From assembly GCA_030591685.1 (NCBI GenBank), contig JAUVAX010000016.1, forward strand, positions 1-48,186: 48,186 bases of DNA, read 5' to 3'. A model generated the notes under the pieces. The model was not told the DNA's origin. It was given only the letters and a program-made list of their open reading frames with translations, and searched no databases. The stretch comes from Pseudobdellovibrionaceae bacterium (GTDB lineage Bacteria; Bdellovibrionota; Bdellovibrionia; Bdellovibrionales; UBA1609). Below are positions 2,749 to 21,149 of the stretch, piece by piece. The translations under genes and the position numbers were made by a program. Positions within the stretch are counted from its first letter, which is position 1; every line of letters begins with the position of its first letter.

Positions 2749-3642
2749 ATGAAAAGTCATTATCACTGTTTAACAGTTCAAAATGTAAAACGAGACGAAG
2801 AGGACCTTCTAACGACACAATTGTTTGAGTTAGGGGCCAGTGGTGTCAGTGAGGACCTTGAGTTTGTTCAAACAAACGATATCTATGAGCCTGAAACTAT
2901 AGAGAGTGATATTTTTAATTTAAAAGCCTATTTTGAAAACGAAGTTCATTTTGATGAAATTAAAAGTGTACTCTCTCAGTACGAGAGCATGACCTATGTG
3001 TTAAGTAAAGAGCCCGTAAAAGATTGGCTCGTAGAGTGGAAAAAGGGTTTTCACCCCTTTGAGCTTGTAAATAATATTTGGGTTGTGCCGACTTGGTTAG
3101 AGGCGCCATCAACATCAAGGGCCAATATATTTATTGATCCAGGTATGGCTTTTGGTACTGGCACTCATGCGACAACACAACTTGCAGCTCAGGCTATTTT
3201 TGAACTTAAAAGTAATAATACTCAATTAAAAACGGCTATTGATGTGGGTACTGGTACGGCTATTTTAGCTATGCTTTGTGAGGTGTTAGGTTTTAGAACT
3301 ATTCAGGGCACTGAAATTGATGAAACCGCAAGAGTCGTGGGTCAAGAAAATATGACCGCCAACAAAATGAAACACATTACAATATTAGATAAGCAAATAG
3401 AGCATGTAGAAAATAAATTTGATTTAGTCATAGCCAATATTATTGACGGCGTGTTGTTAAAAATTCAAACCTCTCTTAAGCGCGCCTGTAAGCCTGGAGG
3501 GTTCATACTTTTAACAGGCGTTTTAAGTGAAAGAAAACCCCATTTTTTAAAAAACTTCACCCTTGATAATGAATTTGATTTAATAAAAACATATGAAAAA
3601 GAAGAGTGGTTAGGTTTTTTATTTAAACGAAGGGAAACGTGA
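2749..3642 (+). CDS. prmA: Ribosomal protein L11 methyltransferase
   Basis: IDPGMAFGTGTHATT, DVGTGTAIL, FDLVIANI motifs. Confidence 0.95.
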   Translation: MKSHYHCLTVQNVKRDEEDLLTTQLFELGASGVSEDLEFVQTNDIYEPETIESDIFNLKAYFENEVHFDEIKSVLSQYESMTYVLSKEPVKDWLVEWKKGFHPFELVNNIWVVPTWLEAPSTSRANIFIDPGMAFGTGTHATTQLAAQAIFELKSNNTQLKTAIDVGTGTAILAMLCEVLGFRTIQGTEIDETARVVGQENMTANKMKHITILDKQIEHVENKFDLVIANIIDGVLLKIQTSLKRACKPGGFILLTGVLSERKPHFLKNFTLDNEFDLIKTYEKEEWLGFLFKRRET

Positions 3643-5437: not shown

Positions 5438-5916
5438 AAAATTTGAAGGGTTATTATACAAGCTACCAAGAAATCTCTAATGATTTATCAATCGTTCGCA
5501 AGGACAAGAAAATAGTATTTACAAATGGTTGTTTTGACCTTTTGCATGTGGGTCATGTGAGGTATTTGGCTGAGGCCAAAGCTCAAGGGGATATACTTGT
5601 CATAGGGCTTAACTCTGACAAGAGCATTCAAGAACTAAAGGGCCCTGAAAGGCCCATTGTAGAGGAAGTATCGCGAGCAGAGATTTTGCTTGGGCTTCGG
5701 TCAGTAGACTATGTTTGTGTTTTTAACGAACCCACTCCTATTGATTTAATCACAGCCCTTGCGCCAGATGTTTTAGTAAAGGGTGGGGATTGGCCGGTGA
5801 GTGAAATCGTAGGGTCTGAGATAGTGTTAAATGGCGGTGGCCAAGTGAAGTCGCTACAGTTTGTTGTTGGAAACTCAACTACAAATATTGTTGAAAAAAT
5901 AAAAGCTCTTAAATAG
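5434..5916 (+). CDS. rfaE2: D-glycero-beta-D-manno-heptose 1-phosphate adenylyltransferase (HldE domain II)
   Basis: [42 protein letters not shown]. Confidence 0.93.
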
Positions 5917-5955
5917 TGCTAACGCACTTTGATTATAATTTATAATAATATTGTT

Positions 5956-6053
5956 TTACTGATTACTGATTACTGATTACTGATTACTGATTACTGATTA
6001 CTGATTACTGATTACTGATTACTGATTACTGATTACTGATTACTGATTACTGA
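5956..6053. repeat. Perfect tandem repeat (TTACTGA)x14
   Basis: 98 bp = 14 exact copies between two convergent genes. Confidence 0.98.
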
Positions 6054-6054
6054 T

Positions 6055-6774
6055 TTAAAATCGAAGACCAACCTTTGTACTGTACACGGGTTCTTTATAG
6101 CGATCTACCTGCGCACTTACAAACACCTTTGAGTAAGCATAGGTAAATCCAATAAGAGAATGAATGTGCGTAACGGAGAGGCTCTCTGCAAGGCCTGTGT
6201 CTGTAAAATTACTCCCCTCTCGAACTCCGACAAACTTACTAATCGTTTTAACTTGCCCCACGCCGGCATAAAAAGAAGCCCTTTCAAAACTAAACCCTGC
6301 TGTGACTTCAACCCCTGTGGAGTTTGAAGTGATGCTGTCATCAACATTACTTGTATTATTGTGAACAAGCAGGGACCAAACAATGGGGAGAAACTTTCCT
6401 TGAAAAAAGCTCCACTTTAAAAGTATTCCGTATTGAGAAATAGTGGTTTGTCGCAAAGGGGGGGTAAAGTCAAAGTACAAATCCATATCATTAAAAAGAC
6501 CCTTCGCAAAAGAAAACTTAGGGTACCTTAGCTTTGAGGGCTGAATAAGTAGGGTAGAGCTTGAAAGGTCAATTTCTTCGACGTTAATGCCAATTTCATA
6601 CCCGGGGAACCCTCCTAGGGGGAAGGGGGCGGAGAGGAGCTTTGTTGAAAGGTTCATCCCTAGGGTGTGCACAAGCTTTTCGCGCTCTTGGGCGTTGAGT
6701 CCTGAAGCCAGTAAAACTTTAGCATAGGAGGGGTTAATAGGTAAAAGTATAAAAATAATGAGTAAAAAACGCAT
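6055..6774 (-). CDS. Probable outer-membrane beta-barrel protein
   Basis: Signal peptide, amphipathic beta-strand pattern, C-terminal YSTKVGLRF. Confidence 0.65.
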   Translation of the reverse strand: MRFLLIIFILLPINPSYAKVLLASGLNAQEREKLVHTLGMNLSTKLLSAPFPLGGFPGYEIGINVEEIDLSSSTLLIQPSKLRYPKFSFAKGLFNDMDLYFDFTPPLRQTTISQYGILLKWSFFQGKFLPIVWSLLVHNNTSNVDDSITSNSTGVEVTAGFSFERASFYAGVGQVKTISKFVGVREGSNFTDTGLAESLSVTHIHSLIGFTYAYSKVFVSAQVDRYKEPVYSTKVGLRF

Positions 6775-6818
6775 GATTTATATTATAAAAGACCAGTCAT
6801 TAAGCCAAGTAAAAGTCT

Positions 6819-6849
6819 AAAAAAAAACCCTGGAACAAAAGTTCCAGGG
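6819..6849 (-). terminator. Intrinsic terminator ending the fla1 3' trailer
   Basis: CCCTGGAAC-TTTT-GTTCCAGGG followed by T9 on the minus strand. Confidence 0.9.
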
Positions 6850-6945
6850 CGGGCTTAAGAGTCGAAGTAAAGTAAAAAACTCTACAACGGGCTACTCATC
6901 TAAACTTAAAGTTAGAAAATTAAATAATAAGCTTAAATCAAAAGC
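6819..6945 (-). ncRNA. Candidate 3'-UTR-derived antisense RNA of fla1
   Basis: Lies between a stop-proximal hairpin and a terminator; 18-nt and 10-nt complementarity to the fla2 leader and 9-nt to the fla2 trailer. Confidence 0.5.
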
Positions 6946-6971
6946 CGGGAGCCAAAGCTGTTGGCCCCCAG
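6940..6971 (-). terminator. Stop-proximal hairpin (weak terminator or processing site) after fla1
   Basis: CTGGGGGCCAA-CAGCT-TTGGCTCCCGG then CTTTT. Confidence 0.6.
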
Positions 6972-6986
6972 TTCTTTAAAATTATA

Positions 6987-7811
6987 CTAAATCAGTCTCA
7001 GTGCGCTTTGTCCGTTTTGGTTAGCACTAGCTAAGACCCCAATGGCTGCGCTTTGTAAAATACTAGCAGATGCGAGCTCAGAGGTTTCGTGAGCAATATC
7101 AGCATCTTGTATTCTCGATTGTGCCGCAGAGAGGTTTTCGTTTTGTATGTCCAGATTACTTACAGTAACTTGTAATCTAGATTGAACAGCACCAAAGTCG
7201 GCTCGCATTTTACTGAGCTTCTCAATGGCGCTATCTACAGCTGAGAGTGTGTCCCTCGACCCGCTTTTATCAGTGATGTCGAGCCCATCAATACCGAGTT
7301 CTCCGGTTGTGGCGTCGGCATTCATCTCATATCTAATAATGTTTTCTTCTCCAGCAAATGGTCCAACATGGTACTCAAGTTCACCACCTGAGCCATTTAA
7401 AAGCTGTTTATTCCCAAACCTTGTGGATTGTGAAATACGCTCAGACTCTTTTATAAGTTGCTGTGCTTCTTGGTTTAAAAATTCTCGTTCTATATTACTG
7501 ACCGTATCACTGGCCCCCTGCACCCCAAGCTCTCTAAGCCTTATCAGGATGTTATTAATTTCATTCAACCCACCCTCACTAACTTGTATCAGTGACTGTG
7601 CGTTGTATGCATTGCTTCGAGCCATTCGGATCCCTTTAACTTGGCCCTTTATATTTTGTGATATCGCAAGGCCGGCGGCATCGTCGGCAGCGTTAACGAT
7701 TCGGCTCCCAGAAGCCAGAGCTGATTGTGCATGCTCTAATCGCCGTTGGTTTTTTGATAATTGCCTTTGTGCATTTATAGATGCTGTGTTTGTATTGATT
7801 CTTAAGCCCAT
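6987..7811 (-). CDS. fliC: Flagellin (fla1), 274 aa
   Basis: MGLRINTN...SGSRIVNAADDAAGLAI...SRIQDADIA; start moved to ATG 7811 after the AGGGGG RBS. Confidence 0.97.
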   Translation of the reverse strand: MGLRINTNTASINAQRQLSKNQRRLEHAQSALASGSRIVNAADDAAGLAISQNIKGQVKGIRMARSNAYNAQSLIQVSEGGLNEINNILIRLRELGVQGASDTVSNIEREFLNQEAQQLIKESERISQSTRFGNKQLLNGSGGELEYHVGPFAGEENIIRYEMNADATTGELGIDGLDITDKSGSRDTLSAVDSAIEKLSKMRADFGAVQSRLQVTVSNLDIQNENLSAAQSRIQDADIAHETSELASASILQSAAIGVLASANQNGQSALRLI

Positions 7812-8150
7812 TGGTAAGCCCCCTAGTAGTATTGTTTTTTGCTCATCCATGTATTTTTCTTGCCACTTAAGACAGAGAGCTTACAAAAAAAGAAGGTTTT
7901 AATTAAAAAAAACTATAGTGGCTATAAAAATAGCACACAGCTTTTTTTAGATTAAAAAACTTCTAGTTATGGGCTTCTTTGCTTAATAGCAAGGACCACG
8001 TCCTAGTCTTTATTAAGTTGTTACTTGGAGACGCTCTAAATTCAAGAGGGGTGACTGACCCTCTTAAAATTTAAAGACTTATTAGAAAGGCTTATTTCAG
8101 TGACTGCTAAAACAAACGTTCTCTTTTAAGGTGCTCCAACATGTTCTGAT
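7812..8150 (-). ncRNA. Long (~340 nt) fla1 5' leader with segments antisense to other flagellin leaders
   Basis: Between the sigma28 promoter and start codon; 15-nt exact complements of fla2 and fla4 leader segments; hairpin 8037..8073 with CAGUCAC loop. Confidence 0.55.
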
Positions 8151-8154
8151 AACC

Positions 8155-8181
8155 TCATCGACCAAGGTCCAGGAAACTTTA
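8155..8181 (-). promoter_or_regulatory. sigma28 promoter of fla1
   Basis: TAAA-N15-GTCGATGA. Confidence 0.85.
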
Positions 8182-8287
8182 GTACTTTGGTCTAGTTTTA
8201 TTTGCCGCAGCGCGTCTAGTCATTGAAATCACAGGAAATAGAAAATAAAAAAACTTATATAAAAAATGAAAAGACTAAAGTCACAAT

Positions 8288-8322
8288 AAATAAAGCCCTT
8301 AAAAGGTTTACTTTTAAGGGCT
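8288..8322 (-). terminator. Intrinsic terminator of fla2
   Basis: AGCCCTTAAAAG-TAAAC-CTTTTAAGGGCT followed by TTATTT. Confidence 0.8.
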
Positions 8323-8350
8323 GTTTTTGTTTTTTTGGGTGCCCGCCCTT

Positions 8351-9178
8351 TTATCCAATAAGCTTTCTGACTAATGTGGGGGCCTGATTGGCCTGTGCTA
8401 AGACGCTTGTAGAGAGCTCTTCAAGGATTCGAGCCCTTGTTAATTGAGCCATTTCACCAGCAACATCCACATCGGCAATAATTGAGCGAGCCTCTGAAAT
8501 GTTTTGGTGTTGAGAGGAAAGAGCGTCGATACTAAATTGAAACCGGCTTTGAGCTGAGCCAAACGTCGCTCGAGCCCTTAAGACCTGACCGAGGGCCCCA
8601 TCTAATTTTTCAATAGAATCTACGGCATCATCTTGGTCTGATATATTGAGGCCATCTATTTCAACCTCACTTGAGGTGGTGTTTGCATCTAGCTTAAATT
8701 TAATAATATTTTCGCTGCCGGCATTTGCCCCAACATGAAACGAAAACTCTTCATTATCGCCAACTAAAAGGTACTTTTGCCCGTACCTTGCCGACCGTGC
8801 AATACGGTCAAACTCCTGATTGAGGGATTGAAACTCCATGTCTAAGAACTCTCGTTCGTCTTTACCGACAGTATCAGAGGCGGCTTGAACGCCAATTTCT
8901 CTCATTCTTAAAAGGACATTGCTTTGCTCATTCAGGCTGCCTTCAGCTGTTTGTATAAAGGCCACGGCACTTTCGGCGTTAAGTTTGGCTTGTTTTAAGC
9001 CACTTATTTGAGACCTAAGGCCTTCGCTAATGGCAAAGCCGGCCACATCGCGACTGCCCTCGCCAACTCGCGAGCCAGAGGCCAGGGATTTTAGAGAGAT
9101 ATTAGTTTGTCTCTGCGATTTGTCCAAAAACCGTTGTGCCGTGAGAGACCCAACGTTTGTATTGATCCGAAAACTCAT
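8351..9178 (-). CDS. fliC: Divergent flagellin (fla2), 275 aa
   Basis: MSFRINTN...FIQTAEGSLNE...IADVDVA...VLAQANQAP; alternative GTG start at 9184. Confidence 0.95.
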   Translation of the reverse strand: MSFRINTNVGSLTAQRFLDKSQRQTNISLKSLASGSRVGEGSRDVAGFAISEGLRSQISGLKQAKLNAESAVAFIQTAEGSLNEQSNVLLRMREIGVQAASDTVGKDEREFLDMEFQSLNQEFDRIARSARYGQKYLLVGDNEEFSFHVGANAGSENIIKFKLDANTTSSEVEIDGLNISDQDDAVDSIEKLDGALGQVLRARATFGSAQSRFQFSIDALSSQHQNISEARSIIADVDVAGEMAQLTRARILEELSTSVLAQANQAPTLVRKLIG

Positions 9179-9269
9179 TTTCACACCCCTATCTTACTTT
9201 TCCTTTCTTAAGCCCTAAAAAAAGAAGAGTAGCCCAGTTGTAGAGATGTTGTTTTAGCAGTCAGGGGGC

Positions 9270-9296
9270 TCTTCGGTGCTGTGCGTCAGAACTTTA
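9270..9296 (-). promoter_or_regulatory. sigma28 promoter of fla2
   Basis: TAAA-N15-ACCGAAGA. Confidence 0.85.
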
Positions 9297-9555
9297 GATA
9301 AAAATAATGCAATACGTTAAGTGCTTGTTATAAAATACCTTTTTAGTAACATTTTTATAAACAGGCTCACCCTCAAGCTTCAGGTAAATGACTCCGTCCC
9401 TAGTTGGTGCTTTTGCAGCCCAGCTTCTGGCCTTCAGGCTTATAAGTCAAAATGAGATTCGCGGGGTCCAAATAAGAGGAGGGGTCGGCGATAAAAAAGT
9501 GGGGGGACAGAACATAAGGAGCTAGAAAGTAAAGGGACTAAAGAGAGAGTGTGCC

Positions 9556-9864
9556 TCAGGCGACCTCATCGTAGTTTTGAGCCTTACGAGTAAGAGTAAA
9601 CTCAAGCTCATCTAATTGAGCATATTTTTTAAGAGCCATTTTTAACTTAAAGTTGTGAGTAAATTTAGATTTATTTCGCTTCACAAACTCATCTAAGCGC
9701 TTTAAGGCCTCTTTAGATTCATCATAATGGGTCTTAACCGGCGGCTCGCCAGGTAAATCAGTATTAATAGGGGCCACTTTAAGGGGGGTGCCTTGAGGGG
9801 TGAGATGCTTGTCAGCCTCTTGGTCCTCCACAACAATAAATGGTTTCATAGCCTTAATTTGCAT
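9556..9864 (-). CDS. Hypothetical 102-aa protein, likely in the sigma28 regulon
   Basis: AGGGG RBS and upstream sigma28 promoter; no recognised domain. Confidence 0.7.
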   Translation of the reverse strand: MQIKAMKPFIVVEDQEADKHLTPQGTPLKVAPINTDLPGEPPVKTHYDESKEALKRLDEFVKRNKSKFTHNFKLKMALKKYAQLDELEFTLTRKAQNYDEVA

Positions 9865-9885
9865 TAAACTACCCCTTGGTCTAGC

Positions 9886-9912
9886 CTATCGGTAGTAAAC
9901 TCAAATACTTAA
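9886..9912 (-). promoter_or_regulatory. sigma28 promoter
   Basis: TTAA-N15-ACCGATAG. Confidence 0.75.
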
Positions 9913-10226
9913 TGCTTCGCGTTACTTATGAGGCAGGCTCCTTGAGTTAAGCCGGGCAAGCTGGCCTAACCCGTCCTAGAGCAGGCAGAAGTGTCCCTGG
10001 CCTTCATAGATTTAGCCCGCGAGGCTCAAATAACAGCCTATAAACAAAGCCTAGCCACAAATTGTCGGTAGTGTGTGTACACACGCAAGGGCGGTAACTC
10101 ATTAATTATACTTAACTTTTCACTTGTGGTAGGGGCAGTTGTTAGTTTTGCCTACAGGGCCCTTACTGAGTGGTCCCAAGTGATTAAAAATCTATTGTAA
10201 TAACAGATAGTTAGCCTGCTTCAATT

Positions 10227-10242
10227 TGGCACATTACGTGCC
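10227..10242 (+). promoter_or_regulatory. sigma54 -24/-12 promoter
   Basis: TGGCAC-ATTAC-GTGC with correct GG-N10-GC spacing. Confidence 0.65.
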
Positions 10243-10275
10243 TTATACATATATATAGGATAAGGAGCAGGCAAA

Positions 10276-11376
10276 ATGAACACTAAAAACACTTTCTACA
10301 TGGTTATCGTATTAATAGGTCTACTGTTTGTGTTTAATTATGGCGGTGGCAAGAACCCTTTTTTAAACGTAAAGGCAACTCAAAAAGTTTTTATGGATTT
10401 TCAAGATGAGGTTGATTTTAAAATCTCTAGGCCGTCCATAAAAATAACTCACCAAAATATGAGGCGCAAAATTCAGCAATTAAAAACGCGTAAGGTTTCG
10501 TTGAGAACAAAAAAACAACAGCTCTCAAAGAAAAAGGCGACTAAGGTTGTAAAAAAGAAAGATAAAAAGAAAAAGAAAAAAACTGAAGCTCAAAAAACTT
10601 TAGCTAACAAAAAAACTGTAAAAGATAAAAAATCACGAGCTAAATTGGAAGACTCTAACGTGCCTAATATCATTAGCTCAGCCCCTAAGGACGATGTAAA
10701 GGAAGCTTCAGAGGAGACAAATGAATGGATCGAAAGGTTTAAACAATTCCCAAATGTAAACACCTTAAAACAGTTTTTATCAGATCATCAGTTGGCTAAT
10801 ATTTCAGATCAGGTTTTTTATGCCGTTGTTGAAAGTTTATTAGAGGGGACAAATATAATTTTAAAAAAACTAGCCCTAACAGCCCTTGATGCTTCGCAAA
10901 CAGTGAGAAGCTTTCATTTACTAGTAGAGAAAGAATCAAGCCCAGAGTTTTTAGAATTAAAAGTAATGATCGAGCAAGCCCTTAATCGATACACCTTTGA
11001 GGGGCGCCTCTTTGTACTAAAGCAAGTTATTGGTAGCTCACAGTCTATTGCCTCTGTCGTTCGAGCAGGAGGTTTACTCTCTGAGCTTGTGAAGAAACTC
11101 ACTCAGGGTCAAAACGAAAAGGGAGAAATTCAAACCTTAGCACTCACAGAGAAGCGACGTAATCAAATGTTGGGCTTGCAGGAATTATTGAACCGAGCTA
11201 TAGGTGATTCGACTAATAATGATGTCAACGAGCAGTTGACAAGCACCTTAAGTGTTATAGAGGGTGTTTTAAAAGACACAACAAAGGTCGCCGAAAACTT
11301 AGATGACGACACTTTCGCCGAAGAGGGCGAGCCGGGTTTAGAAGAGGTTGGTTTGTCCTCTATAAGTACGTTTTAA
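10276..11376 (+). CDS. Hypothetical membrane-anchored protein, Lys-rich linker and helical (HEAT-like) C-terminus
   Basis: TAAGGAG RBS, N-terminal TM segment, KKKDKKKKKK tract. Confidence 0.75.
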   Translation: MNTKNTFYMVIVLIGLLFVFNYGGGKNPFLNVKATQKVFMDFQDEVDFKISRPSIKITHQNMRRKIQQLKTRKVSLRTKKQQLSKKKATKVVKKKDKKKKKKTEAQKTLANKKTVKDKKSRAKLEDSNVPNIISSAPKDDVKEASEETNEWIERFKQFPNVNTLKQFLSDHQLANISDQVFYAVVESLLEGTNIILKKLALTALDASQTVRSFHLLVEKESSPEFLELKVMIEQALNRYTFEGRLFVLKQVIGSSQSIASVVRAGGLLSELVKKLTQGQNEKGEIQTLALTEKRRNQMLGLQELLNRAIGDSTNNDVNEQLTSTLSVIEGVLKDTTKVAENLDDDTFAEEGEPGLEEVGLSSISTF

Positions 11377-11392
11377 TTAAAGGATAGTTTTT

Positions 11393-12511
11393 TTGAAGTT
11401 ATATTTTTATATACTAGCATTAATCTTCAGCTTTATAGGGAGTGCTGAGGCCTCCACGTGTAGACAGGTGTTTTCACCACATAAAATCCAATTAAAAACT
11501 ACTTATCAAAAAAGTGAATTTTTGGGTCAAGTGGCCGAAAACACAGGGAACAAGTCATTAAAAAAAATACGACTCAAAGTAGGTCAAGATCCGGAGCTTA
11601 AAGCTAGGTACAATAAACTTGTTGAAAAAATAGATTTAAACTCAGGGGCCTCAGCGGTTAAATTAGAAGTACTTTCGCAAAAGCTTATAGAGCTTATTAA
11701 GGTAAAAAATGAGGGGTATTTTAGAATCTTAAAAAAGGCGCTCTCGCCAAAGTCAGAGCCCCATGTTAAGGAGCTCGTTAGGCAGCGCCTACTTGTTCTG
11801 ACCCTTTCAAGGGATATTTCTTTAGAGTTAAAAAAATATGGCCTCTATCAAAAAAGCACTTGGCGCACGCGAGCACAAAGAAAACTCAAAAAATACATAC
11901 TACAAAGAAAACTTGTACAAGCCATTTTAATCAATGGCCTCAGTATTCATTTTTTAGGCTGGCCTGTTTATATACCTAATGTTGACTTTATTTCCCATAC
12001 CTACTTTTCACCCTCAGTATTGAAAATGGTCGAAAAGGAGGGCTTTGGGCCCACCTATAAGGATATTAAAAATCAATTTTCATTAAGGGTAGGGGCTCAA
12101 AAAGCCACCCATACAATTACAAAGGTTCTAACAGCAACGTTTTTGGCGACTTACTTGGCTTATTTTTCTTATGGGACTTATAAAGCAGGTAAACTTACTT
12201 ATGGTACCTATGAGATTCTACAAGACGTAGAGTACAGTCATACTTATTTTTTACTCAGCTCAGTACCTAAAGAAAATAAAATTTATGACAGTTGGGCTGA
12301 TCTATTTTATCAAATGAATGCTAGAGAGCCCGATATTAATAACAATCAATTTGACCGTTCTGATTGGAAAACTTACCTAATAGACATAAACACATCTTGG
12401 GCAAGCGCCATAGAGCAAGAGTATGGGCGCAGACCTAATATGAAAGAAAGCCTTGAAGACCGTAAAGCTTGGATAGAGTTTGTAAAAATTCCCTTTGATA
12501 GTGGTTTATAG
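11393..12511 (+). CDS. Hypothetical exported protein with internal hydrophobic segments
   Basis: Signal peptide ...AEA|STCRQVF; 372 aa. Confidence 0.75.
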   Translation: MKLYFYILALIFSFIGSAEASTCRQVFSPHKIQLKTTYQKSEFLGQVAENTGNKSLKKIRLKVGQDPELKARYNKLVEKIDLNSGASAVKLEVLSQKLIELIKVKNEGYFRILKKALSPKSEPHVKELVRQRLLVLTLSRDISLELKKYGLYQKSTWRTRAQRKLKKYILQRKLVQAILINGLSIHFLGWPVYIPNVDFISHTYFSPSVLKMVEKEGFGPTYKDIKNQFSLRVGAQKATHTITKVLTATFLATYLAYFSYGTYKAGKLTYGTYEILQDVEYSHTYFLLSSVPKENKIYDSWADLFYQMNAREPDINNNQFDRSDWKTYLIDINTSWASAIEQEYGRRPNMKESLEDRKAWIEFVKIPFDSGL

Positions 12512-12742
12512 GAGGGGGTTGGGTGTTGCTCGAGCGGGTCCTTTGCCTGCTACAGCTGATCTGCTAAATTGTCTGAGTTGTATAATAAAATCAGCTGAGC
12601 GTTAAGGCCAGTAGTGCACTAGGTGCATAGATCTATAGGTATGTAGAAATTTCACTATTTTGATTTACTAAGGCCAGCAGGCTTTAATTATAGTACTCTC
12701 GGTTAAAGTTTTACTTAGGTAAATACAAATAAAGGGGCTCTT

Positions 12743-14317
12743 ATGCTTATTAGAAATTTAGCATTGATTGTATCGGTGATTATTTGTGTAGGTTCAATTG
12801 TCGAGGCCAATGTGCTTCAGAAAAAATTACCAGAAGCAGATCTATATTCTCAAACTGATGTTGAGGCACTTAGTTTTCAATTTGTACAGGGCTCGCCGCC
12901 GGTTTTTTATAATGTCCCTCCCGGCCAAGTCGACCAAGAGATTTTAATAATAAATGATTTAAAAAAAATAGCCAAAGACGACCATGTCATTCAGTCCATA
13001 GTGGGCAATGAAGTATGGACGCTGCTCCCCCTCAGAGACAAAATACTAAATGAACAAAGATCTAAAGCCTTTGAAACCAGTATTAAGGTAGGTAAAAAAG
13101 TTGTTGGTGAATGGCTGCTTGAGGCGGCAAAACAAAGAGGGTTAGTTAAAAACGATAAAGAGGCCACAGCCCTACTAGAGGCACTAAATATAATTGAAAC
13201 CAAATCAGATGAGGAAATCACGGCCTACATTAATGAACATAAGCTAAAACCAATGCCGACTAAGGCAGACATTATTGATCGTGTTCAGGGAGGGATGGCG
13301 ATTCGTGACTCACAAAATCGAAAAGCTGAGTATGTAACAGAGATAGAGGCGCTTATCCGTGAAATTGACAGCAAAGAAAACACTTTTAAAATGCCCGATA
13401 ATTCAAGTTTTAGCCTTCAGGGTTTATATAAAAATGTAACAACACCTTCGGCATACATATTTACAGCTGGTATAAAGCTACCTAAGTCTAACATGGGTCC
13501 ACAAAATAATATATTCAGTTCGTCTGGTGTCGTTGGGCCTCTTGGTAATCTTTTTGTAAGGTCTGTTCAAATTATTTATAAGCTTTTATCAGGCAACTCA
13601 GTCACTTTTACTTCAATAAATCGCCCATGGGCAAAGCATGTTAGAAATTTAGATACAAATGAAATTACTGTCTCGACCTCTGACCCCTCAACATGGCACT
13701 GGGAGAAATCAGCTCAAGTTTGGGTGCAGATTGATGAGATGTTTAAGAAAAATAAAAAAGCTCCGGTCGCACCTTTTATGGGTCCTTTTTTAGAGGGTAA
13801 AGGTCCAACGCTGCTACCATTCCCCAAATATAGAGTGGGTGGTGGTTTCCTTTGGGCTAGAGACATGAAGACCCTTGCTGAAATAAAAGGTGGGTTTGTT
13901 GGCGGGTCATTTACAGTGACAGCAAAAAACCAAGTGAATAGGTATAAGCCGATTTCAGGTAATGTTAAAGTCGGGGTTGTTCTGCCAATGGAGAATATTA
14001 CATCCGGTAGTATCCCAAAACTTTTTGACTACGTATATGCTATGGCGTTTATTCAAAAAGGAGTTCAAGTTTCAAAGGCCATCAAAGCAACGACTAATGT
14101 TGGGTACATAATGAGCTTGTCAGAAATGTTCAATGCACAGCCTGTTTTTACTCAGCCCTATCCTGTGCAAACTCAACCAGGGAGCGTTGGTACTCCTGGT
14201 AACCCTGGTGGAGGGCCGATTGGTATATTCCCTCAGCCGCGTGATGACTCACGGTTAAACCCACCTATTGGGTTTATGCCGCGAGAGCAAGAGACGATCA
14301 TTTCGCCCCCGAAGTGA
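12743..14317 (+). CDS. Hypothetical secreted protein with Pro/Gly-rich C-terminus
   Basis: Signal peptide ...VEA; 524 aa; AAGGGG RBS. Confidence 0.75.
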   Translation: MLIRNLALIVSVIICVGSIVEANVLQKKLPEADLYSQTDVEALSFQFVQGSPPVFYNVPPGQVDQEILIINDLKKIAKDDHVIQSIVGNEVWTLLPLRDKILNEQRSKAFETSIKVGKKVVGEWLLEAAKQRGLVKNDKEATALLEALNIIETKSDEEITAYINEHKLKPMPTKADIIDRVQGGMAIRDSQNRKAEYVTEIEALIREIDSKENTFKMPDNSSFSLQGLYKNVTTPSAYIFTAGIKLPKSNMGPQNNIFSSSGVVGPLGNLFVRSVQIIYKLLSGNSVTFTSINRPWAKHVRNLDTNEITVSTSDPSTWHWEKSAQVWVQIDEMFKKNKKAPVAPFMGPFLEGKGPTLLPFPKYRVGGGFLWARDMKTLAEIKGGFVGGSFTVTAKNQVNRYKPISGNVKVGVVLPMENITSGSIPKLFDYVYAMAFIQKGVQVSKAIKATTNVGYIMSLSEMFNAQPVFTQPYPVQTQPGSVGTPGNPGGGPIGIFPQPRDDSRLNPPIGFMPREQETIISPPK

Positions 14318-14393
14318 GTATTACTAAGTCATTTATTAAGAGATATAGAGTTTTTTAAGTAAAAAAATAAATTGCGCGTAAAGGTAAAAAAAT

Positions 14394-16850
14394 ATGTTTA
14401 AATTTAAGGTTTTATTGGCGCCTGTTTTGTTAACAATGCTGGCCTCGTTTTCCCACGCGGCACCTAACATGTGTCATCTTCTTTTTAAGGCCTCTTACGA
14501 GGGCTTAACCAAGGCCGATCAATTAAGGTTAGATAATAGTAAAATTAAGATTGATCAAACCATAGATTTGAATTTTGATTTAGATTTTGTAAAAAACGCC
14601 GCAATACCTGAAAAAAAATATAATGAGTATGTCCATAAGTTTTATTACCATAAAAACTTTAACCCTTTAAGTTGGAGTTGGTACACGTTAAATCATTTGG
14701 GCCGTTGGACTTATATGACTTACCGAGGCGCCCCATCGGCTAGTTTTTATCAAAAAGCCCGACAAGACGCCCTATTTTTTGCAAGCCCTGAAATTCGACA
14801 AAAAATGAGTCGATTAAAAGAGGTTGTAGAGGGGTATGTAGAGCAAATTGTAAAAGTTAAAAATGAAATATCTGAACTAGAGTTAGAGGTTGATCATCTC
14901 AAGCAATATATTACCGAAAGCAAAAAAGAAAAAATCTTAGACCTACAGATGCAAATTGAGAGCCAGCGGTTAAAGCTTGAGTCCTATGAAGAAAAGCAAA
15001 AAAATAAAAATGATATTTTAGATAAAATTTCAAAAAATAGTGAGTTTAGAAAATCAAAAACAAGAATAAAAAGGCTGGTTAGGCAACTTAATACTTATGA
15101 CGCTCGAATTAATGAAACAATTAAGCTAGCCACCGCGACTCGATTAAGAGCCTACATGTACTGGAAGGCATTTCTTAGTTCGAGAATATTTTTTTATGAC
15201 AAGGTAAAGTATACACATCTCGTTATTGGCAAAAAAAATACAAGTAACGGAAAGTACTTTGAGGTCGTAGGGGCTCCTAGAGTTAGGGATTACCTTATTC
15301 GAGTCAAGGTCCCCGTGTATAATACTAAACTTAAGCAGTTCGAGTTTGAGGACGAATATTTTAAAACCAAATGGCACTTGTTTCATTCAGCCCGCGTAGA
15401 GCTAAGCAATGCCGTTAGGTATTCAGCCAAGGTCCCTGTTTTAAGTAGCTTGTTTTCGCAGCGTGAGGTTTTAAAACTAGAGAGGCAACAGGCTGAAACT
15501 CGGGGTGAACTTGAGGCTGTATATGTTGTTCTTGAGCGATTGAGATTAAAAAACAAGCTCAACCCAGAGACGACTGAGGAGCTAGATAAAATCGACACAG
15601 CTCTTAGAGAGCATGAGCGTACAGTCAGCCGCAGGGCAAAATTTTGGTTGAGCTCAAAGATATTTTGGGCCGAACACAAAAGCTTTTACAACCGCAGCTA
15701 TAATGCGACAGCACAATTTATTGACAAATACTTTAACCGCGACGGCGGTGCTGAAATTAGTCAAAATGAATTTACAGTACTCCTTAAGGACGCCGGTATT
15801 GCTGAAAAAACGAGAAGTTCTTTGCCAGTTACAGTGATGACCAGAAGCCTCATGGCCGTGCTCTTGAGTTCATCAGGGTATAAGTATCATCAAAACCTCT
15901 TTGAGTACGTACAGAAGTCTTATGACACTATAGATGCTACTGTCATGAATACCGCTTATAGGTATTATGGCGTTGATTTTAATATTAAAGCCATCACTCA
16001 TAAAGACTATAATTCAACAGGTAGCCGCACCGCTGAAGAGAAGTACGGAGCAGCTAGAAATAAACAGTTATACTTAGCCTTTGGGTCTAGGTATAAGAAA
16101 TTTTCAGAGGGAAAGCTAGAAGGCCTATCCTCTGAGGATATAACCACCTATGTAACCGCCGTAAATGAATTTAGAAAAGAGAGGGCGCTATACCTTTTAT
16201 CTAAAAAATTAAAGAGTATTGATGTGAGTAAAGATAAAAGTTTAATTTCTGTTCAATCTAAGTTAGTAGATAAGCTTTCAGAAGTTTCTTTTTTCGAAGC
16301 CGAAGCCATTGTAGAGGCTGCAAAAATAGTGGATAACAACGCATTTTCCCGTGTAGCCGCTGAACTATTGGGTGAAGTAACAAGAAAATACGATAACAAT
16401 AAAGAGATCTCAGACAGGGCGCCTGTCGATTTTGATAGCTATAAGGTCCAGAGATATATACTTAATATACTTCATGCCCTTAATTTAAGTGAAAAAGTAG
16501 ACTTTGCAACAGCACATAAGCTAATAGACGATTTAATGCTTGGAGAGCGAGGTTCAATGACCCTCAGGGCTTTAATCGAGGACAAGTACGAATTTGACAA
16601 TTTTAGGGCTAAAAAATTCTCCTTTCAAACAGAGTACAGCATTGAAAAGAACCTGCTCGAGGCTAGAAAGGCAGAGGTGAGTGTTTACTTTTTTAATAAA
16701 TTTATTAAAGACCATAACGGGGACGCAATAGATATTCTCAGTCGGGCGTTAGAGTTAGAGCAAGAGGCTTATAATCAGTACCTAAATGAAAATCCGGTAT
16801 TAAAGCGTGAAGTTATAAATGATAAGAGGTCTGTAGAGCTTGAGGATTAG
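14394..16850 (+). CDS. Large hypothetical secreted coiled-coil protein
   Basis: Signal peptide ...SHA|APNMCHLLF; 818 aa; heptad-rich region. Confidence 0.78.
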   Translation: MFKFKVLLAPVLLTMLASFSHAAPNMCHLLFKASYEGLTKADQLRLDNSKIKIDQTIDLNFDLDFVKNAAIPEKKYNEYVHKFYYHKNFNPLSWSWYTLNHLGRWTYMTYRGAPSASFYQKARQDALFFASPEIRQKMSRLKEVVEGYVEQIVKVKNEISELELEVDHLKQYITESKKEKILDLQMQIESQRLKLESYEEKQKNKNDILDKISKNSEFRKSKTRIKRLVRQLNTYDARINETIKLATATRLRAYMYWKAFLSSRIFFYDKVKYTHLVIGKKNTSNGKYFEVVGAPRVRDYLIRVKVPVYNTKLKQFEFEDEYFKTKWHLFHSARVELSNAVRYSAKVPVLSSLFSQREVLKLERQQAETRGELEAVYVVLERLRLKNKLNPETTEELDKIDTALREHERTVSRRAKFWLSSKIFWAEHKSFYNRSYNATAQFIDKYFNRDGGAEISQNEFTVLLKDAGIAEKTRSSLPVTVMTRSLMAVLLSSSGYKYHQNLFEYVQKSYDTIDATVMNTAYRYYGVDFNIKAITHKDYNSTGSRTAEEKYGAARNKQLYLAFGSRYKKFSEGKLEGLSSEDITTYVTAVNEFRKERALYLLSKKLKSIDVSKDKSLISVQSKLVDKLSEVSFFEAEAIVEAAKIVDNNAFSRVAAELLGEVTRKYDNNKEISDRAPVDFDSYKVQRYILNILHALNLSEKVDFATAHKLIDDLMLGERGSMTLRALIEDKYEFDNFRAKKFSFQTEYSIEKNLLEARKAEVSVYFFNKFIKDHNGDAIDILSRALELEQEAYNQYLNENPVLKREVINDKRSVELED

Positions 16851-16885
16851 TTTACTATAGTCTTAATATGTTAGTCCTAAAATCT

Positions 16886-16916
16886 AAAGCCCAGTCGAGC
16901 TCGACTGGGCTTTTTT
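16886..16916 (+). terminator. Intrinsic terminator
   Basis: Palindrome AAAGCCCAGTCGAGCTCGACTGGGCTTT followed by T tract. Confidence 0.85.
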
Positions 16917-17022
16917 CTATTTGCCCACAAGTCGATAAAAACTTAGTCGAGTATTCTTTAGTCTGTAGGGGTATAAAGGTCTGTATAATTTTAATTCTAT
17001 AGTCTTGGTTTTTATTTCTTTA

Positions 17023-17093
17023 GTCTAGAATGAGCAACACCTAAATCTAGTTTCACTCGACTGGGCTTAAGCAATGACTAGCCTCGCCGAAGG
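17023..17093 (+). promoter_or_regulatory. sigma28 promoter of fla3 with upstream palindromic box
   Basis: ATCTAG-N5-CTCGAC-N5-TTAA-N15-GCCGAAGG; extra GTCTAG at 17023. Confidence 0.8.
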
Positions 17094-17285
17094 GTAAGTT
17101 GTAAGCGGCACTGGCCTAGACTTAAAAAATGAAGAGAGATTTATAGTTTTAAAAGTAGACATAAACCTCGCTAAAAGTTTTAAGTACAAGGTCTGGTGTA
17201 AAAAATAAACCGTGTCGATAGACACCACAATCTGTAAGTAGCGGTAGGTCGTGAAAGTAAATTGTGAAAAATAAGGAGAACACAC

Positions 17286-18119
17286 ATGGCACTAGTTATA
17301 TCAACAAACATACCCTCAATAAATGCTCAAAAATCAATGAGTCAAACACAAAGAACACTACAAAAAACCATGGCCCAACTTTCATCGGGGTCAAGAATAA
17401 CAAAGGCCGCAGATGATGCCGCAGGCTTATCAATAAGTGAAAACTTAAAGTCTAACATAAGAGGCTACACACAGGCTCGTAGAAACGCCAACGACGGGAT
17501 CTCAATGATTCAAGTGGCTGAGGGTGGCCTTGCTGAGGTTTCAAATATATTAACGAGGCTCAGGGAGCTAGGCGTTCAGGCTGCTTCTGATACGATCGGA
17601 GATACAGAACGTGGATTTGTGAACAAAGAAGTTCAGCAATTAAAAAACGAAGTTCAACGTATTGCTAGTTCGACAAGGTTTAATGGCGCTCAGTTATTAG
17701 ATGGATCTGGGGGCGAGTTTTCCTTTCAGGTAGACATAGGTAATGATGATTTTAAAGATAGAATAACATTTGATACCTCAGAGCAGTCGGTGAACCTTTC
17801 TGATTTAAGTATTGATGGTTTTGATTTTTCATCCAACGATGGAGCCAGAGAGGCCCTAGAGCAACTCGATGCAAGCCAATCACAAGTGAACGGGCATAGA
17901 GCGAATTTAGGAGCCCTACAAAACAGACTCATATCTACAACAGAAAACCTAAGCACAGCAATTGAGAACTTTTCATCTGCAAACTCACGAATCAGAGACA
18001 CAGATGTTGCAGAATCAAGTGCAGCCCTTGCCTCAGCACAAATATTAGCTCAGGCTTCTGTGGGTGTTTTGGCTCAAGCCAATCAAATGCCTCAATCGGC
18101 ACTAAGGCTAATAGCTTAA
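17286..18119 (+). CDS. fliC: Flagellin (fla3)
   Basis: LSSGSRITKAADDAAGLSISE...SRIRDTDVA. Confidence 0.97.
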   Translation: MALVISTNIPSINAQKSMSQTQRTLQKTMAQLSSGSRITKAADDAAGLSISENLKSNIRGYTQARRNANDGISMIQVAEGGLAEVSNILTRLRELGVQAASDTIGDTERGFVNKEVQQLKNEVQRIASSTRFNGAQLLDGSGGEFSFQVDIGNDDFKDRITFDTSEQSVNLSDLSIDGFDFSSNDGAREALEQLDASQSQVNGHRANLGALQNRLISTTENLSTAIENFSSANSRIRDTDVAESSAALASAQILAQASVGVLAQANQMPQSALRLIA

Positions 18120-18179
18120 TAGTAATTATTTATAGATTTTATGTTTGGGGGGTGGTTCTCCGTCCCCGGAACTGACCTA

Positions 18180-18209
18180 CCCGGGGGGCTTGTCTCCCGG
18201 GGTTCTTTT
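18180..18209 (+). terminator. Terminator of fla3
   Basis: CCCGGGGGG-CTTG-TCTCCCGGG then GTTCTTTT. Confidence 0.7.
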
Positions 18210-18602
18210 AGTAAATAATATTATTACTGAAAGAAAGGTAAATGAATGGCTCACATGAGCCTCTAGTTTATAAAACCTCCTAAAGGTAAAAGCTAACTTA
18301 AAATTCACCCCTTTAAAGGTAAAAGTTATAGCTTAAGTCCACCTTTTTACTTCAAAATTAATTTATCACAATGGGTTTAAATATTAAGATAATAAAAATC
18401 TAATTTACCTTAATGCCCTCATTTAATATTGCTTATTTATTTTTGTTATATAGATAGTAGAAGTTAATTGTGTACAGGTAATTAATAACTCAGTGAGGTT
18501 GGGAACTTAATATATATAGACTCCACCAAGTAACAAAACATTAATTAACTTAAAAATATCATTGAAAACATTTTAGTAATTTTGATTTTTCCTAGAAGGG
18601 CC

Positions 18603-18680
18603 ATACGTTAGTCTAGTTAGTCAATACGTTGGTCTAGTTTGCCTAGACTCGACTAAAGTTCACCCAGACTCGACCGAAGT
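18603..18680 (+). promoter_or_regulatory. sigma28 promoter of fla4 with upstream boxes
   Basis: ATACGTTRGTCTAGTT x2 (21-bp period); GTCTAG-N5-CTAGAC-N5-TAAA-N15-ACCGAAGT. Confidence 0.85.
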
Positions 18681-18687
18681 AGTGGTA

Positions 18688-18895
18688 TACAAAGCAGCAG
18701 ACCTTGGACGGTCAGAACTTAGTTAAGCTTTTGAGTGACTGCTTAAGCTTAATTAAAAAAACTAAGTTCATTTCCTCAAGTTTCTTCTGCTCCAACATGT
18801 TCAACCAAGCCTATGATGGGCTGTTCTTGGCGGGCGGTTAGGGTCCGCCAAGAGCAGGGAAGATGGAATCTTTCTTAAAAAACGAGGAGAGTCTA
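18688..18895 (+). ncRNA. Conserved structured 5' leader of fla4
   Basis: Same hairpin order and conserved loops as the fla5 leader, with compensatory stem changes. Confidence 0.7.
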
Positions 18896-19729
18896 ATGTC
18901 ACTCAACATCACAACAAACATAGCGTCTATAAACGCTCAAAAAACAATGGCCACGTCGCAACGAAGTTTAGAAAAGAGTTTTGCTCAACTTTCGTCGGGT
19001 TCAAGAATAACAAAGGCTTCAGATGATGCCGCTGGGTTATCTATAAGCGAAAACTTAAAATCAACAATCAGAGGCTACTATCAGGCCCAACGAAATGCTA
19101 ACGATGGTATTTCAATGATTCAAGTAGCAGAAGGGGGCTTGGCTGAAACCTCTAATATATTAACTCGTTTAAGAGAATTAGGAGTACAAGCCGCGTCAGA
19201 TACAGTTGGTGACACAGAGAGAGGCTTTATTAATCAAGAAGTTCAACAGTTAAAAAGTGAAGTTCAGCGTATTGCCGAATCTACCAGGTATAACGGAACA
19301 AACCTACTTGATGGTAGCGGTGAGGAGTTTTCATTTCAAATAGATATAGGCAATGATGAGTTCAGAGATCGAATTTCATTTGATGCTTCAGCTCAAGAGG
19401 TCACCCTGGGTGCACTTGATATATCTAACTTTGATTATGCTGAAAAAGACGGAGCCAGAGATGCGCTTTCTGTTTTAGAAGATGCTCAAACAAGCGTCAA
19501 CGGGCACAGGGCAACTCTTGGAGCACTTCAGAATCGCCTTATTTCGACTTCAGAGAATTTAAACAATGCTATTGAAAACTTTTCGGCAGCTAACTCTCGA
19601 ATTAGAGATACTGACGTAGCTCAATCTAGCGCCGACTTAGCAAAGGGCCAGGTTTTAAATGCAGCCTCTATTAGTGTCCTGGCTCAGGCCAATCAAATGC
19701 CGCAATCAGCACTTCGCTTAATAGGTTAA
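18896..19729 (+). CDS. fliC: Flagellin (fla4), 277 aa
   Basis: Start moved to ATG 18896 after GAGGAG; MSLNITTNIAS matches fla5. Confidence 0.97.
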   Translation: MSLNITTNIASINAQKTMATSQRSLEKSFAQLSSGSRITKASDDAAGLSISENLKSTIRGYYQAQRNANDGISMIQVAEGGLAETSNILTRLRELGVQAASDTVGDTERGFINQEVQQLKSEVQRIAESTRYNGTNLLDGSGEEFSFQIDIGNDEFRDRISFDASAQEVTLGALDISNFDYAEKDGARDALSVLEDAQTSVNGHRATLGALQNRLISTSENLNNAIENFSAANSRIRDTDVAQSSADLAKGQVLNAASISVLAQANQMPQSALRLIG

Positions 19730-19762
19730 TACTTTAAAAAAAATGATATTAAAGACGTCTAG

Positions 19763-19796
19763 ACCAAGGCCCAGAAACTGGCCTTGGTTTTTTTTT
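19763..19796 (+). terminator. Terminator of fla4
   Basis: ACCAAGGCCCAG-AAA-CTGGCCTTGGT followed by T tract. Confidence 0.85.
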
Positions 19797-19919
19797 GAAC
19801 TTAAATATAGTTAGACATTATTTTTTAAAAACATAACTTCAGTTTATACCTCTGCTTTTAAAATTTACCTTCTATAAATAGTAAAAATATAAATATACCC
19901 TTAAAGCCTATGGACGAAT

Positions 19920-19990
19920 GTCTAGATCAAGTAACACCTTCGTCTAGTTATGCTCGACTCGACTTAAGTTCGCCCGGACTAGACCGAAGG
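19920..19990 (+). promoter_or_regulatory. sigma28 promoter of fla5 with upstream boxes
   Basis: GTCTAG at 19920 and 19942; GTCTAG-N5-CTCGAC-N5-TTAA-N15-ACCGAAGG. Confidence 0.85.
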
Positions 19991-19997
19991 GTTGTTA

Positions 19998-20204
19998 TAA
20001 CAAGCAGCAAGACTTTCGGCGGTCAGACTTTAGTAAGCCTTTATGTGACTGTATCGGTTTAAATAGAGCTAAAGTCAGACAAAGAAAAATTTGCAGCTCT
20101 AACATGTTCAACCCAATCCATGATGGATATCTGACGTGCGGGAGGTTAGGCCCGTTCATTAGGATTAAGAGCAAAGAGGCTCTTAAAAACCAAAGGAGAG
20201 TACT
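19998..20204 (+). ncRNA. Conserved structured 5' leader of fla5
   Basis: Homologous to the fla4 leader. Confidence 0.7.
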
Positions 20205-21038
20205 ATGTCACTCAATATAACAACAAACATAGCGTCTATAAACGCTCAAAAAACAATGGCCACGTCGCAAAGAAATTTAGAAAAGAGCTTTGCTCAACTT
20301 TCGTCGGGTTCAAGAATAACAAAGGCTTCAGATGATGCTGCGGGGCTATCTATAAGCGAAAACTTAAAATCAACAATCAGAGGCTACTATCAAGCACAGC
20401 GTAACGCGAGTGATGGTATTTCAATGATTCAAGTAGCTGAAGGAGGTTTGGCTGAAACCTCTAATATATTAACCCGTTTAAGGGAGCTAGGAGTTCAGGC
20501 CGCATCAGATACCGTTGGCAATACTGAACGAGGATTTATAAATAAAGAAGTTCAGCAGCTAAAAAGTGAGATTCAACGTATTTCTCAAGCAACAAGATAT
20601 AATGGTACAAACCTTTTAGATGGTAGCGGTGAAGAGTTTTCATTTCAGGTAGATATCGGTAATGATGATTTTAGAGATCGAATTTCATTCGATGCATCAG
20701 CACAAGAAAGCACATTAAGTGCTCTTGATGTAGGAAGCTTTGACTATTCAGATAAAGATGGCGCCAGGGAGGCACTTTCAGTTTTAGAGGACGCACAAAC
20801 TACTGTTAACGGTCACCGAGCAACGCTTGGTGCACTTCAAAATCGATTAATTTCAACCTCTGAGAACTTAAATAACGCCATTGAAAATTTCTCGGCGGCC
20901 AATTCTCGAATTAGAGATACAGATGTAGCTCAATCTAGTGCAGATTTAGCAAAGGGACAGGTTTTAAATGCAGCCGCAATTAGTGTTCTTTCGCAGGCCA
21001 ATCAAATGCCACAATCAGCACTTAGATTAATTGGATAA
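20205..21038 (+). CDS. fliC: Flagellin (fla5)
   Basis: Close paralogue of fla4; AAGGAG RBS. Confidence 0.97.
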   Translation: MSLNITTNIASINAQKTMATSQRNLEKSFAQLSSGSRITKASDDAAGLSISENLKSTIRGYYQAQRNASDGISMIQVAEGGLAETSNILTRLRELGVQAASDTVGNTERGFINKEVQQLKSEIQRISQATRYNGTNLLDGSGEEFSFQVDIGNDDFRDRISFDASAQESTLSALDVGSFDYSDKDGAREALSVLEDAQTTVNGHRATLGALQNRLISTSENLNNAIENFSAANSRIRDTDVAQSSADLAKGQVLNAAAISVLSQANQMPQSALRLIG

Positions 21039-21104
21039 TAAATTTTAAGAGTTAAAATTTGGCAGGGGAGAACTCTCCATTCCGGCCAGATCTAACCTAA
21101 CCTA

Positions 21105-21133
21105 CCTAAGGGCTCCGCAGCCCTTAGGTTTTT
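21105..21133 (+). terminator. Terminator of fla5
   Basis: CCTAAGGGCT-CCGC-AGCCCTTAGG-TTTTT. Confidence 0.9.
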
Positions 21134-21149
21134 CTAGTTATATGTCCTA

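Follow-up and report, generated by a model that had tools for sequence, protein, structure and literature searches.

A tandem flagellin pair with FliA-like promoters

The window, by which we mean the whole 48,186-nt stretch of DNA analysed, belongs to a 2.66-Mb Pseudobdellovibrionaceae genome, in which we counted eight flagellin genes and a longer FlgL-like match. Two flagellin genes, fla2 and fla1, form a tandem pair on the minus strand, each with a FliA-like promoter ahead of it. The fla2 coding sequence occupies 8351–9178 (minus; ATG at 9178, SD at 9190–9186) and is followed by a terminator-like hairpin at 8294–8322, present on both strands. fla1, a fliC1-type flagellin gene and the host of the trailer RNA described below, spans 6987–7811 (minus; ATG at 7811, SD at 7824–7819). 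An upstream in-frame ATG at 7850 (7850–7812, minus) would add 13 codons; we set the start at 7811 because the orthologues and the SD point there. The fla1 protein shares 64–67% identity with the flagellin in those named B. bacteriovorus records that have a trailer matching the small RNA APsRNA4, and its named closest relatives are Bdellovibrionales. A tree of 215 flagellin sequences resolved a fla2 clade (65 sequences, support 0.99), a fla1 group and a third clade, into which the window's three remaining flagellins fell.

Using the FliA consensus given in PMC3627812, we placed the FliA (σ28)-like promoter of fla2 at 9270–9297 (minus), with a putative transcription start near 9263; this promoter is conserved in fla2 leaders. 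The corresponding promoter of fla1 lies at 8155–8182 (minus), with a putative start near 8148. CTAGAC/GTCTAG repeats, possibly candidate binding sites for a regulator, precede flagellin promoters at about 17030–17100, 18590–18680 and 19900–20000 (plus) and at 8215–8155 (minus). By eye, one arm of the fla2 terminator hairpin (8322–8311, minus) is nearly complementary to the fla2 leader at 9222–9211 (minus). Elsewhere in the genome, the end of contig C85 and the start of contig C22 carry an identical 9-nt tandem repeat beside flagellin genes; the two contigs probably adjoin, yielding a fliC3/fliC4-like pair.

A conserved RNA fold predicted behind fliC1-type flagellin genes

Behind fla1 orthologues we found a recurrent layout: first a hairpin (hairpin 1, with GCCCACAGAC as its consensus loop), then UUAAGCCC(G/A)CCC as the linker, and finally a terminator. 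In the window, this trailer core, delimited by alignment and pair counts, covers 6818–6912 (minus) and comprises hairpin 1, the linker seed, the intrinsic terminator and a U-run. Seed 1 (6880–6901, minus) is the 5′ arm and loop of hairpin 1, and seed 2 (6846–6863, minus) is the linker running into the terminator stem. The terminator (6818–6850, minus) consists of a stem at 6850–6827 and the U-run; its helix, the third of the alignment, is 95.6% paired. A preliminary description of the window had placed the element between a hairpin (6971–6945) and this terminator, and we confirmed both. The hairpin at 6945–6971 (minus), between the fla1 stop and the trailer, is not conserved in sequence and may be a leaky terminator or a protective hairpin. 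Across 96 homologues the element lies 32–505 nt past the stop (median 126), and 17 of them have no structured stretch upstream.

A pattern search recovered 88 distinct trailers and missed 27 loci, many of them incomplete. With near-duplicates and atypical long hairpins excluded, 60 of the 88 entered the alignment, from which the structure was drawn by hand. Both sides had changed in 11 of 14 base pairs and 88.9% of cells were paired, a level reached by none of 500 shuffles; slid controls gave 40–59%. A model built from the alignment matched the window once, at 6822–6920 (E 6e-12; the sequence itself belongs to the model). Of the 151 genomes in the order, 105 were matched, almost without exception by one strong copy, a count that takes in the training sequences and a few weak matches. 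Among 121 genomes sampled outside the order, 13 weak matches (E 6e-5 or worse) appeared. We rejected a look-alike on contig C35 as a second trailer copy, since it is an AT-rich stretch with a terminator. Searches of Rfam gave no match at the gathering score with eight related loci, and chance-level matches only with window positions 5500–20500. Overall, as judged from sequence and pair covariation, the trailer is a conserved structured RNA behind fliC1-type flagellins. It lies within the 3′ UTR and shares the intrinsic terminator of the mRNA, as 3′-UTR-derived small RNAs do, and carries a conserved seed with predicted complementarity to a target in trans. Separately, CCCAC is frequent in the terminator loops of trailers (for example L142, L047 and L058) and GUGGG occurs in several fla2 leader hairpin loops, a possible further loop–loop contact.

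The position of the trailer corresponds to that of APsRNA4 in B. bacteriovorus HD100, a small RNA reported at 3,500 RPKM, 116-fold enriched in attack phase, without a FliA promoter and with its 5′ end 30 nt past the stop of Bd0604 (fliC1) (PMC3627812). The fliC1 leader was described as a separate small RNA, APsRNA3; the ends of these RNAs were estimated from coverage, and the paper gives no target or function and reports no homology of APsRNA4 outside B. bacteriovorus (PMC3627812). The printed APsRNA4 sequence matches, by eye, the trailer of a named B. bacteriovorus locus (L108); our alignment includes L107, L118, L119 and others. The printed sequence runs through the upstream hairpin and ends at the point where hairpin 1 passes into its loop, short of the two seeds and of the terminator. 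APsRNA4 thus shares with the trailer both the position behind fliC1 and continuity of sequence with the conserved element. Complete termination at the upstream hairpin, which would have spoken against an RNA from this region, does not occur in B. bacteriovorus, where published RNA-seq coverage crosses the hairpin into the element. The present genome has a gene of the RNase E/G family. In the literature on Bdellovibrio small RNAs outside subscription journals, the APsRNAs were described in the 2013 paper only.

Complementarity between seed 1 and the fla2 leader

Seed 1 is complementary to site 1 of the fla2 leader (9223–9245, minus), a pairing that we call I1. Site 1 overlaps an anti-SD (9249–9241) that pairs with 9191–9183 in the predicted fold of the leader. 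The preliminary description had reported this pairing; it is present and extends to 6901–6880 with 9245–9223. The helix scored −36.9 kcal/mol versus −17.8 ± 3.0 for 300 dinucleotide shuffles of the trailer, none of which was as good. Because the whole 61-nt core gave sprawling matches, which outranked the fla2 site (6th among non-self matches), we used short seeds for genome scans. With the 23-nt seed 1, no non-self match on either strand of the 2.66-Mb genome scored better than site 1 (−34.8, next −32.8).

Both genes were present in 73 records, 65 of them with a trailer and 59 with a usable leader. Cognate I1 pairs scored −28.2 versus −22.3 ± 0.5 for permuted partners, a comparison that ignores relatedness and so overstates the difference, and the cognate pair beat the row mean in 48 of 59 records. 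In this genome, with its completely diverged loop, the cognate pair ranks first in both directions. Different compensatory loop changes were found in L001, L010, L012, L017, L022, L024/L110/L160, L082, L134, L136, L145, L173 and this genome; as the changes differ among records, they do not trace to a single inherited event. Of 58 paired records, left after one close relative had been dropped, 7 gave no site; in the remaining 51, deviant loop cells were paired in 27 of 39 cases, with 18.3 expected. L006, L008 and L071 carry uncompensated loop changes, and in the I1 core G-U and A-C cells stand at about 8 to 8. Absence of the matches from related genomes, which the preliminary description had named as a refutation, is not what we observed; they are conserved and co-vary. 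Together, these data make it very probable that seed 1 and the fla2 leader do pair and that selection maintains this pairing.

Five Bdellovibrio genomes (L193–L197) returned no fla2 orthologue with the fla2 query, the best match being fliC1 itself (45–47%). The same genomes retain the trailer loop and seed 2, and a search of their flagellin leaders and 3′ UTRs gave no consistent complement of the loop, so there the loop has another target or role.

The fla1 leader is complementary to the fla2 mRNA 5′ end

The fla1 leader folds into a structured module (8024–8140, minus), a homologue of APsRNA3, with a stem that closes it in relatives (8140–8134 with 8030–8024), a hairpin holding the I3 site (8101–8115, minus) and a second hairpin at 8065–8044. 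Positions 8115–8101 perfectly complement 9263–9249, the first ~15 nt of the fla2 mRNA (9249–9263, minus) if transcription starts at the putative site; this pairing, I3, is the second-best non-self site genome-wide. Cognate pairs scored −32.7 versus −23.1 for permuted ones and were better in 48 of 49 genomes, the permutation again ignoring relatedness and overstating the effect. Double changes occurred at all 14 columns, with 22 G-U versus 8 A-C cells in 46 records, and I3 gave the strongest signal across relatives among the tested pairings. The I3 and I1 sites lie at most 7 nt apart in 30 of 39 records. On the evidence of complementarity, a pairing between the fla1 leader and the first ~17 nt of the fla2 mRNA was overlooked in the preliminary description.

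In folding models, I3 binding opened neither RBS. Activation of fla1 through its leader was rejected, since I3 binding lowered the opening cost of the fla1 RBS in 5 and raised it in 18 of 48 cases. The stem that closes the fla1 leader is formed by GUUGGAG and CUCCAAC (8140–8134 with 8030–8024, minus), and GUUGGAG recurs at the fla1 SD in many relatives (for example L004, L018 and L135); CUCCAAC could switch between the closing stem and the fla1 SD, acting there as an anti-SD.

I1 and I3 form inverted repeats around the genes, as an invertible DNA segment, relics of duplication or chance might also leave behind. However, one orientation prevails in 71 of 72 loci, where an invertible segment would occur in both among relatives. 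Moreover, G-U cells exceed A-C cells in I3 (22 to 8), an excess that the I1 core (about 8 to 8) does not share; the sites occupy loops of RNA hairpins and the inferred +1, and chance is excluded by the shuffles and the covariation. We therefore regard a DNA-level or chance origin as extremely improbable.

Pairing of seed 1 is predicted to open the fla2 RBS

When site 1 was held unpaired in folding models of the fla2 leader, the cost of opening the fla2 RBS fell from 10.0 to 6.1 kcal/mol in this genome. Across relatives, blocking site 1 reduced the cost by at least 1 kcal/mol in 37 of 45 records and raised it in 2; the same blocking of the I3 site gave a decrease in 8 and an increase in 11. fla2 leaders hide the RBS more than shuffled leaders in 36 of 44 cases. 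All these values come from folding models that start at the inferred transcription start. As blocking site 1 opens the RBS, activation of fla2 is predicted, and we think that the I1 pairing probably has this effect. Activation through the opening of an RBS-hiding stem has been described for the 3′-UTR-derived small RNA FlaX and flaB/D in V. parahaemolyticus (bioRxiv 10.64898/2026.08.28.747715).

A real I1 pairing might instead repress fla2 or promote decay of its mRNA, so that fla1 expression would shut fla2 off, with an RNase III substrate or a hidden standby site as possible routes. I1 and I3 together would form a near-continuous duplex over the first ~40 nt of the fla2 leader; FlaX represses flaB through standby sites (PMC11879080), and single-flagellin blocks along the filament would suit such a switch (PMC2791853). 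Nonetheless, site 1 is the arm that hides the RBS, not the RBS, and for 37 of 45 records the models predict that the RBS opens when site 1 is bound. Repression thus appears distinctly unlikely.

Seed 2 has alternative targets

The preliminary description had listed, besides the seed 1 pairing, two short matches of seed 2 and a 15-mer (6846–6860) equal to the joined fla2 3′ end and leader. All three complementarities and the 15-mer are present. The 10-mer target has 14 copies and the 9-mer target 18 copies in the genome; as each is at chance level taken alone, we judged both by conservation. Neither is among the top 20 seed 2 sites genome-wide, over 20 better-scoring sites lying elsewhere, and part of seed 2 is predicted to be paired inside the trailer of this genome. 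The candidate targets, which would be alternatives to one another, are the fla1 start (I4), the fla2 3′ UTR (I2) and, in this genome only, a loop in the fla2 leader.

The three targets differ in conservation. The RBS-proximal 10-mer match, in the loop of the inner fla2 leader hairpin (9206–9215, minus), occurs in 1 of 65 fla2 leaders, namely this one. The 9-mer match just after the fla2 stop (I2; 8341–8349, minus) fared better, being present in 25 of 85 fla2 3′ UTRs, 0 of 109 fla1 and 0 of 37 third-clade 3′ UTRs, with 0.085 expected. Among 64 paired records it is found in 23; where the variable seed position is G it occurs in 22 of 46, and where that position is A, in 1 of 16. It is missing from the other 41, 4 of which hold a similar site in the leader instead.

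One of the 14 copies of the 10-mer target is the start of fla1 itself (7809–7800), within a seed 2 site over the start codon and codons 2–4 (I4; 7800–7810, minus). Gly2 is encoded by GGC in 97 of 104 fla1 genes versus 4 of 21 and 5 of 42 genes in the other two clades, and Leu3 by TTA in 92 of 101 versus 16 of 34 and 20 of 36 elsewhere, a codon bias that could be inherited. Cognate seeds fit better in 70 of 93 cases by a small margin (−19.8 versus −19.1), and I4 includes compensatory cases as well as several uncompensated seeds. The variable seed position is G or A, each able to pair with the U of AUG. By its distribution, the start codon of fla1 is the widest and most conserved predicted target of seed 2, and the preliminary description had overlooked it.

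The fla1 start site and the fla2 3′ site both use GCCC and hence compete, and the 15-mer is a by-product of this overlap between competing seed 2 sites. The preliminary description had read the 15-mer, which does equal the joined sequence, as a padlock or splint for covalent circularisation of the fla2 mRNA. That reading depends on a leader site that no other genome shares (1 of 65 leaders) and on a 3′ site that 41 of 64 paired genomes lack, 4 of them with a similar leader site. The start of fla1 gives the same overlap, and both fla2 targets compete for the same GCCC. A splint for ligation would show conserved pairing with both true ends of its substrate; here neither target is at a predicted transcript end, the sites lying about 50 nt inside, and the resulting circle would lose site 1. 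We find circularisation hardly credible.

Pairing in trans and chaperones

fla1 and fla2 are co-oriented in 71 of 72 loci, mostly 350–1,000 nt apart, an arrangement that would also suit long-range cis pairing within one fla2–fla1 read-through transcript. However, fla1 has its own promoter and a terminator follows fla2. In L175, moreover, 7.9 kb and five opposite-strand ORFs separate the genes and I1, I2 and I3 are intact, indicating that the pairings are kept even between genes that cannot lie on one transcript. Read-through pairing is thus very unlikely as a general explanation; I4 may well form in cis. The genome, 100% complete by markers, gave no match to Hfq and no match to ProQ (PF04352), for which an E. 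coli control was positive; CsrA is present. Long helices nucleated at loops would fit chaperone-independent pairing.

Complementarities reach the third flagellin clade

A second trailer family lies behind third-clade (Bd0606-type) flagellins, at about 18140–18215 and 21060–21140 (plus), and is conserved in Bdellovibrio. Its layout is a hairpin with a CUCC-type loop, a linker ACCUACC (18175 and 21100) and a terminator, and third-clade leaders carry a complement of the linker, GGUAGGU or GGUUAGG (17243, 18836 and 20144). Likewise, the loop CAGUCAC of the second fla1 leader hairpin (8065–8044, minus) complements GUGACUG in third-clade leaders (18735–18741 and 20045–20051, plus). Matching variants of this pair occur in Bdellovibrio, in a weak test of 16 loci (p about 0.02) for which some loops were mis-picked. 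These UTR complementarities suggest that the whole flagellin network may be tied together by base pairing between UTRs.

Discussion

A model of reciprocal flagellin control

Complementarity at four places co-varies across genomes, and the trailer fold is conserved; both statements concern the sequences themselves. On this basis we favour, with somewhat more confidence than doubt, a model in which the trailer, with its two seeds, works as a conserved antisense module. It would activate fla2 and damp fla1, and the fla2 mRNA would titrate it where that mRNA has a second site. The trailer would act without a chaperone, either while still at the fla1 mRNA's 3′ terminus or after processing to a small RNA. 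Seed 1 would dock where the fla2 leader is open and displace the arm that hides the RBS, turning fla2 translation on, and the fla1 leader would serve as a second anchor, or as a guard of the 5′ end, by binding the neighbouring first ~17 nt of the fla2 mRNA. Seed 2, over the start codon of its own host gene, would damp fla1 translation, and the seed 2 site of the fla2 mRNA, here in the 3′ UTR, would act as a sponge that lifts this brake. The role of seed 2 as brake and sponge is the part we hold least firmly, only just on the side of acceptance. As a net effect, each flagellin would be made in step with the mRNA of the other, setting block order or ratio in a multi-flagellin filament. The Bdellovibrio filament has been described as ordered blocks of flagellins with FliC1 at the midpoint (PMC2791853). 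From the preliminary description, this model keeps the fla1 trailer as a 3′-UTR RNA with the fla2 leader as its partner, joined in part of the clade by the 3′ UTR of fla2; it drops the circular junction, and adds to the proposed control of fla2 the predicted sign (activation), I3 and the target at the fla1 start.

The same helices can be arranged differently. Full-length fla1 and fla2 mRNAs might form one defined dimer, which alone would be translated well or stable, with the fla2 leader splinting the fla1 ends (I3 and I1) and the fla1 trailer splinting the fla2 ends (I1 and I2). The order of the seeds equals the order required of a splint in both directions, in 30 of 39 records the I1 site adjoins that of I3, no helices overlap once I2 replaces I4, and each gene has a FliA-like promoter. 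In contrast, 41 of 64 paired records lack I2, 4 of them having the site in the leader, ribosomes that reach the fla2 stop would be expected to displace I2, and the fliC1 leader and trailer of B. bacteriovorus were reported as separate small RNAs, APsRNA3 and APsRNA4 (PMC3627812). We consider this double clamp unlikely. The broader idea that a chaperone-free reciprocal mRNA dimer, each message splinting the ends of the other, serves as an RNA-only sensor of stoichiometry is a shade less doubtful, and we offer it tentatively.

Relation to known systems

The closest likeness is to FlaX of Vibrio, a flagellin 3′ UTR RNA that pairs with the leaders of other flagellins, as the trailer appears to do from its complementarity, and that activates flaB/D in V. 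parahaemolyticus by opening an RBS-hiding stem, as predicted here by folding. FlaX represses reporters including one of its own host gene flaA, and FlaY, a 3′ UTR RNA of the activated target, binds FlaX as a sponge (PMC11879080; bioRxiv 10.64898/2026.08.28.747715). However, Vibrio belongs to another phylum, the trailer has a ~90-nt core versus 265 nt for FlaX, and the promoter here is FliA-like rather than σ54. The FlaX family is ProQ-bound, whereas this genome has no ProQ or Hfq match, and the helices here are long and near-perfect. A second antisense module, the 5′ leader of the host gene, binds next to the site of the trailer in our model. The comparison with FlaX was made from its published description, and the trailer model fades to E 6e-5 or worse outside the order.

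The E. coli small RNAs MotR, FliX, UhpU and FlgO are Hfq-dependent and have other targets than those proposed here. They are σ28-dependent (PMC10578931; PMC11879080) and, like the trailer, are FliA-driven RNAs derived from UTRs of flagellar genes. Pairing between UTRs is known from icaR of S. aureus and hbs of B. subtilis, in which the 3′ UTR pairs with the start region of its own mRNA, as in I4, and from L. monocytogenes, in which the hly 3′ UTR pairs with the prsA2 5′ UTR, as in I1 (PMC7821165). Each of these is a single interaction, poorly conserved between species (PMC7821165), whereas the four pairings described here are linked and order-wide; I4, unlike icaR and hbs, covers the start codon and not the SD. 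The fliC1-derived APsRNA4 and APsRNA3 resemble the trailer and the fla1 leader module in position. Literature outside subscription journals on Bdellovibrio flagellin small RNAs and on mRNA–mRNA pairing gave no description of these pairings.

Many Bdellovibrio attack-phase genes share one sigma factor, and pairing between UTRs would provide a concrete RNA mechanism for the setting of flagellin order or ratio that can be tested by mutation, in parts in a cultured strain. To our knowledge, intermolecular covariation this clear is rare among bacterial regulatory RNAs, and here it arises without Hfq or ProQ. The trailer would represent an order-wide RNA family that Rfam lacks, and APsRNA3 and APsRNA4, orphan RNAs known since 2013, would gain candidate targets and a corrected extent. 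Overall, the flagellin UTRs of these bacteria would represent an independent origin of the FlaX/FlaY logic.
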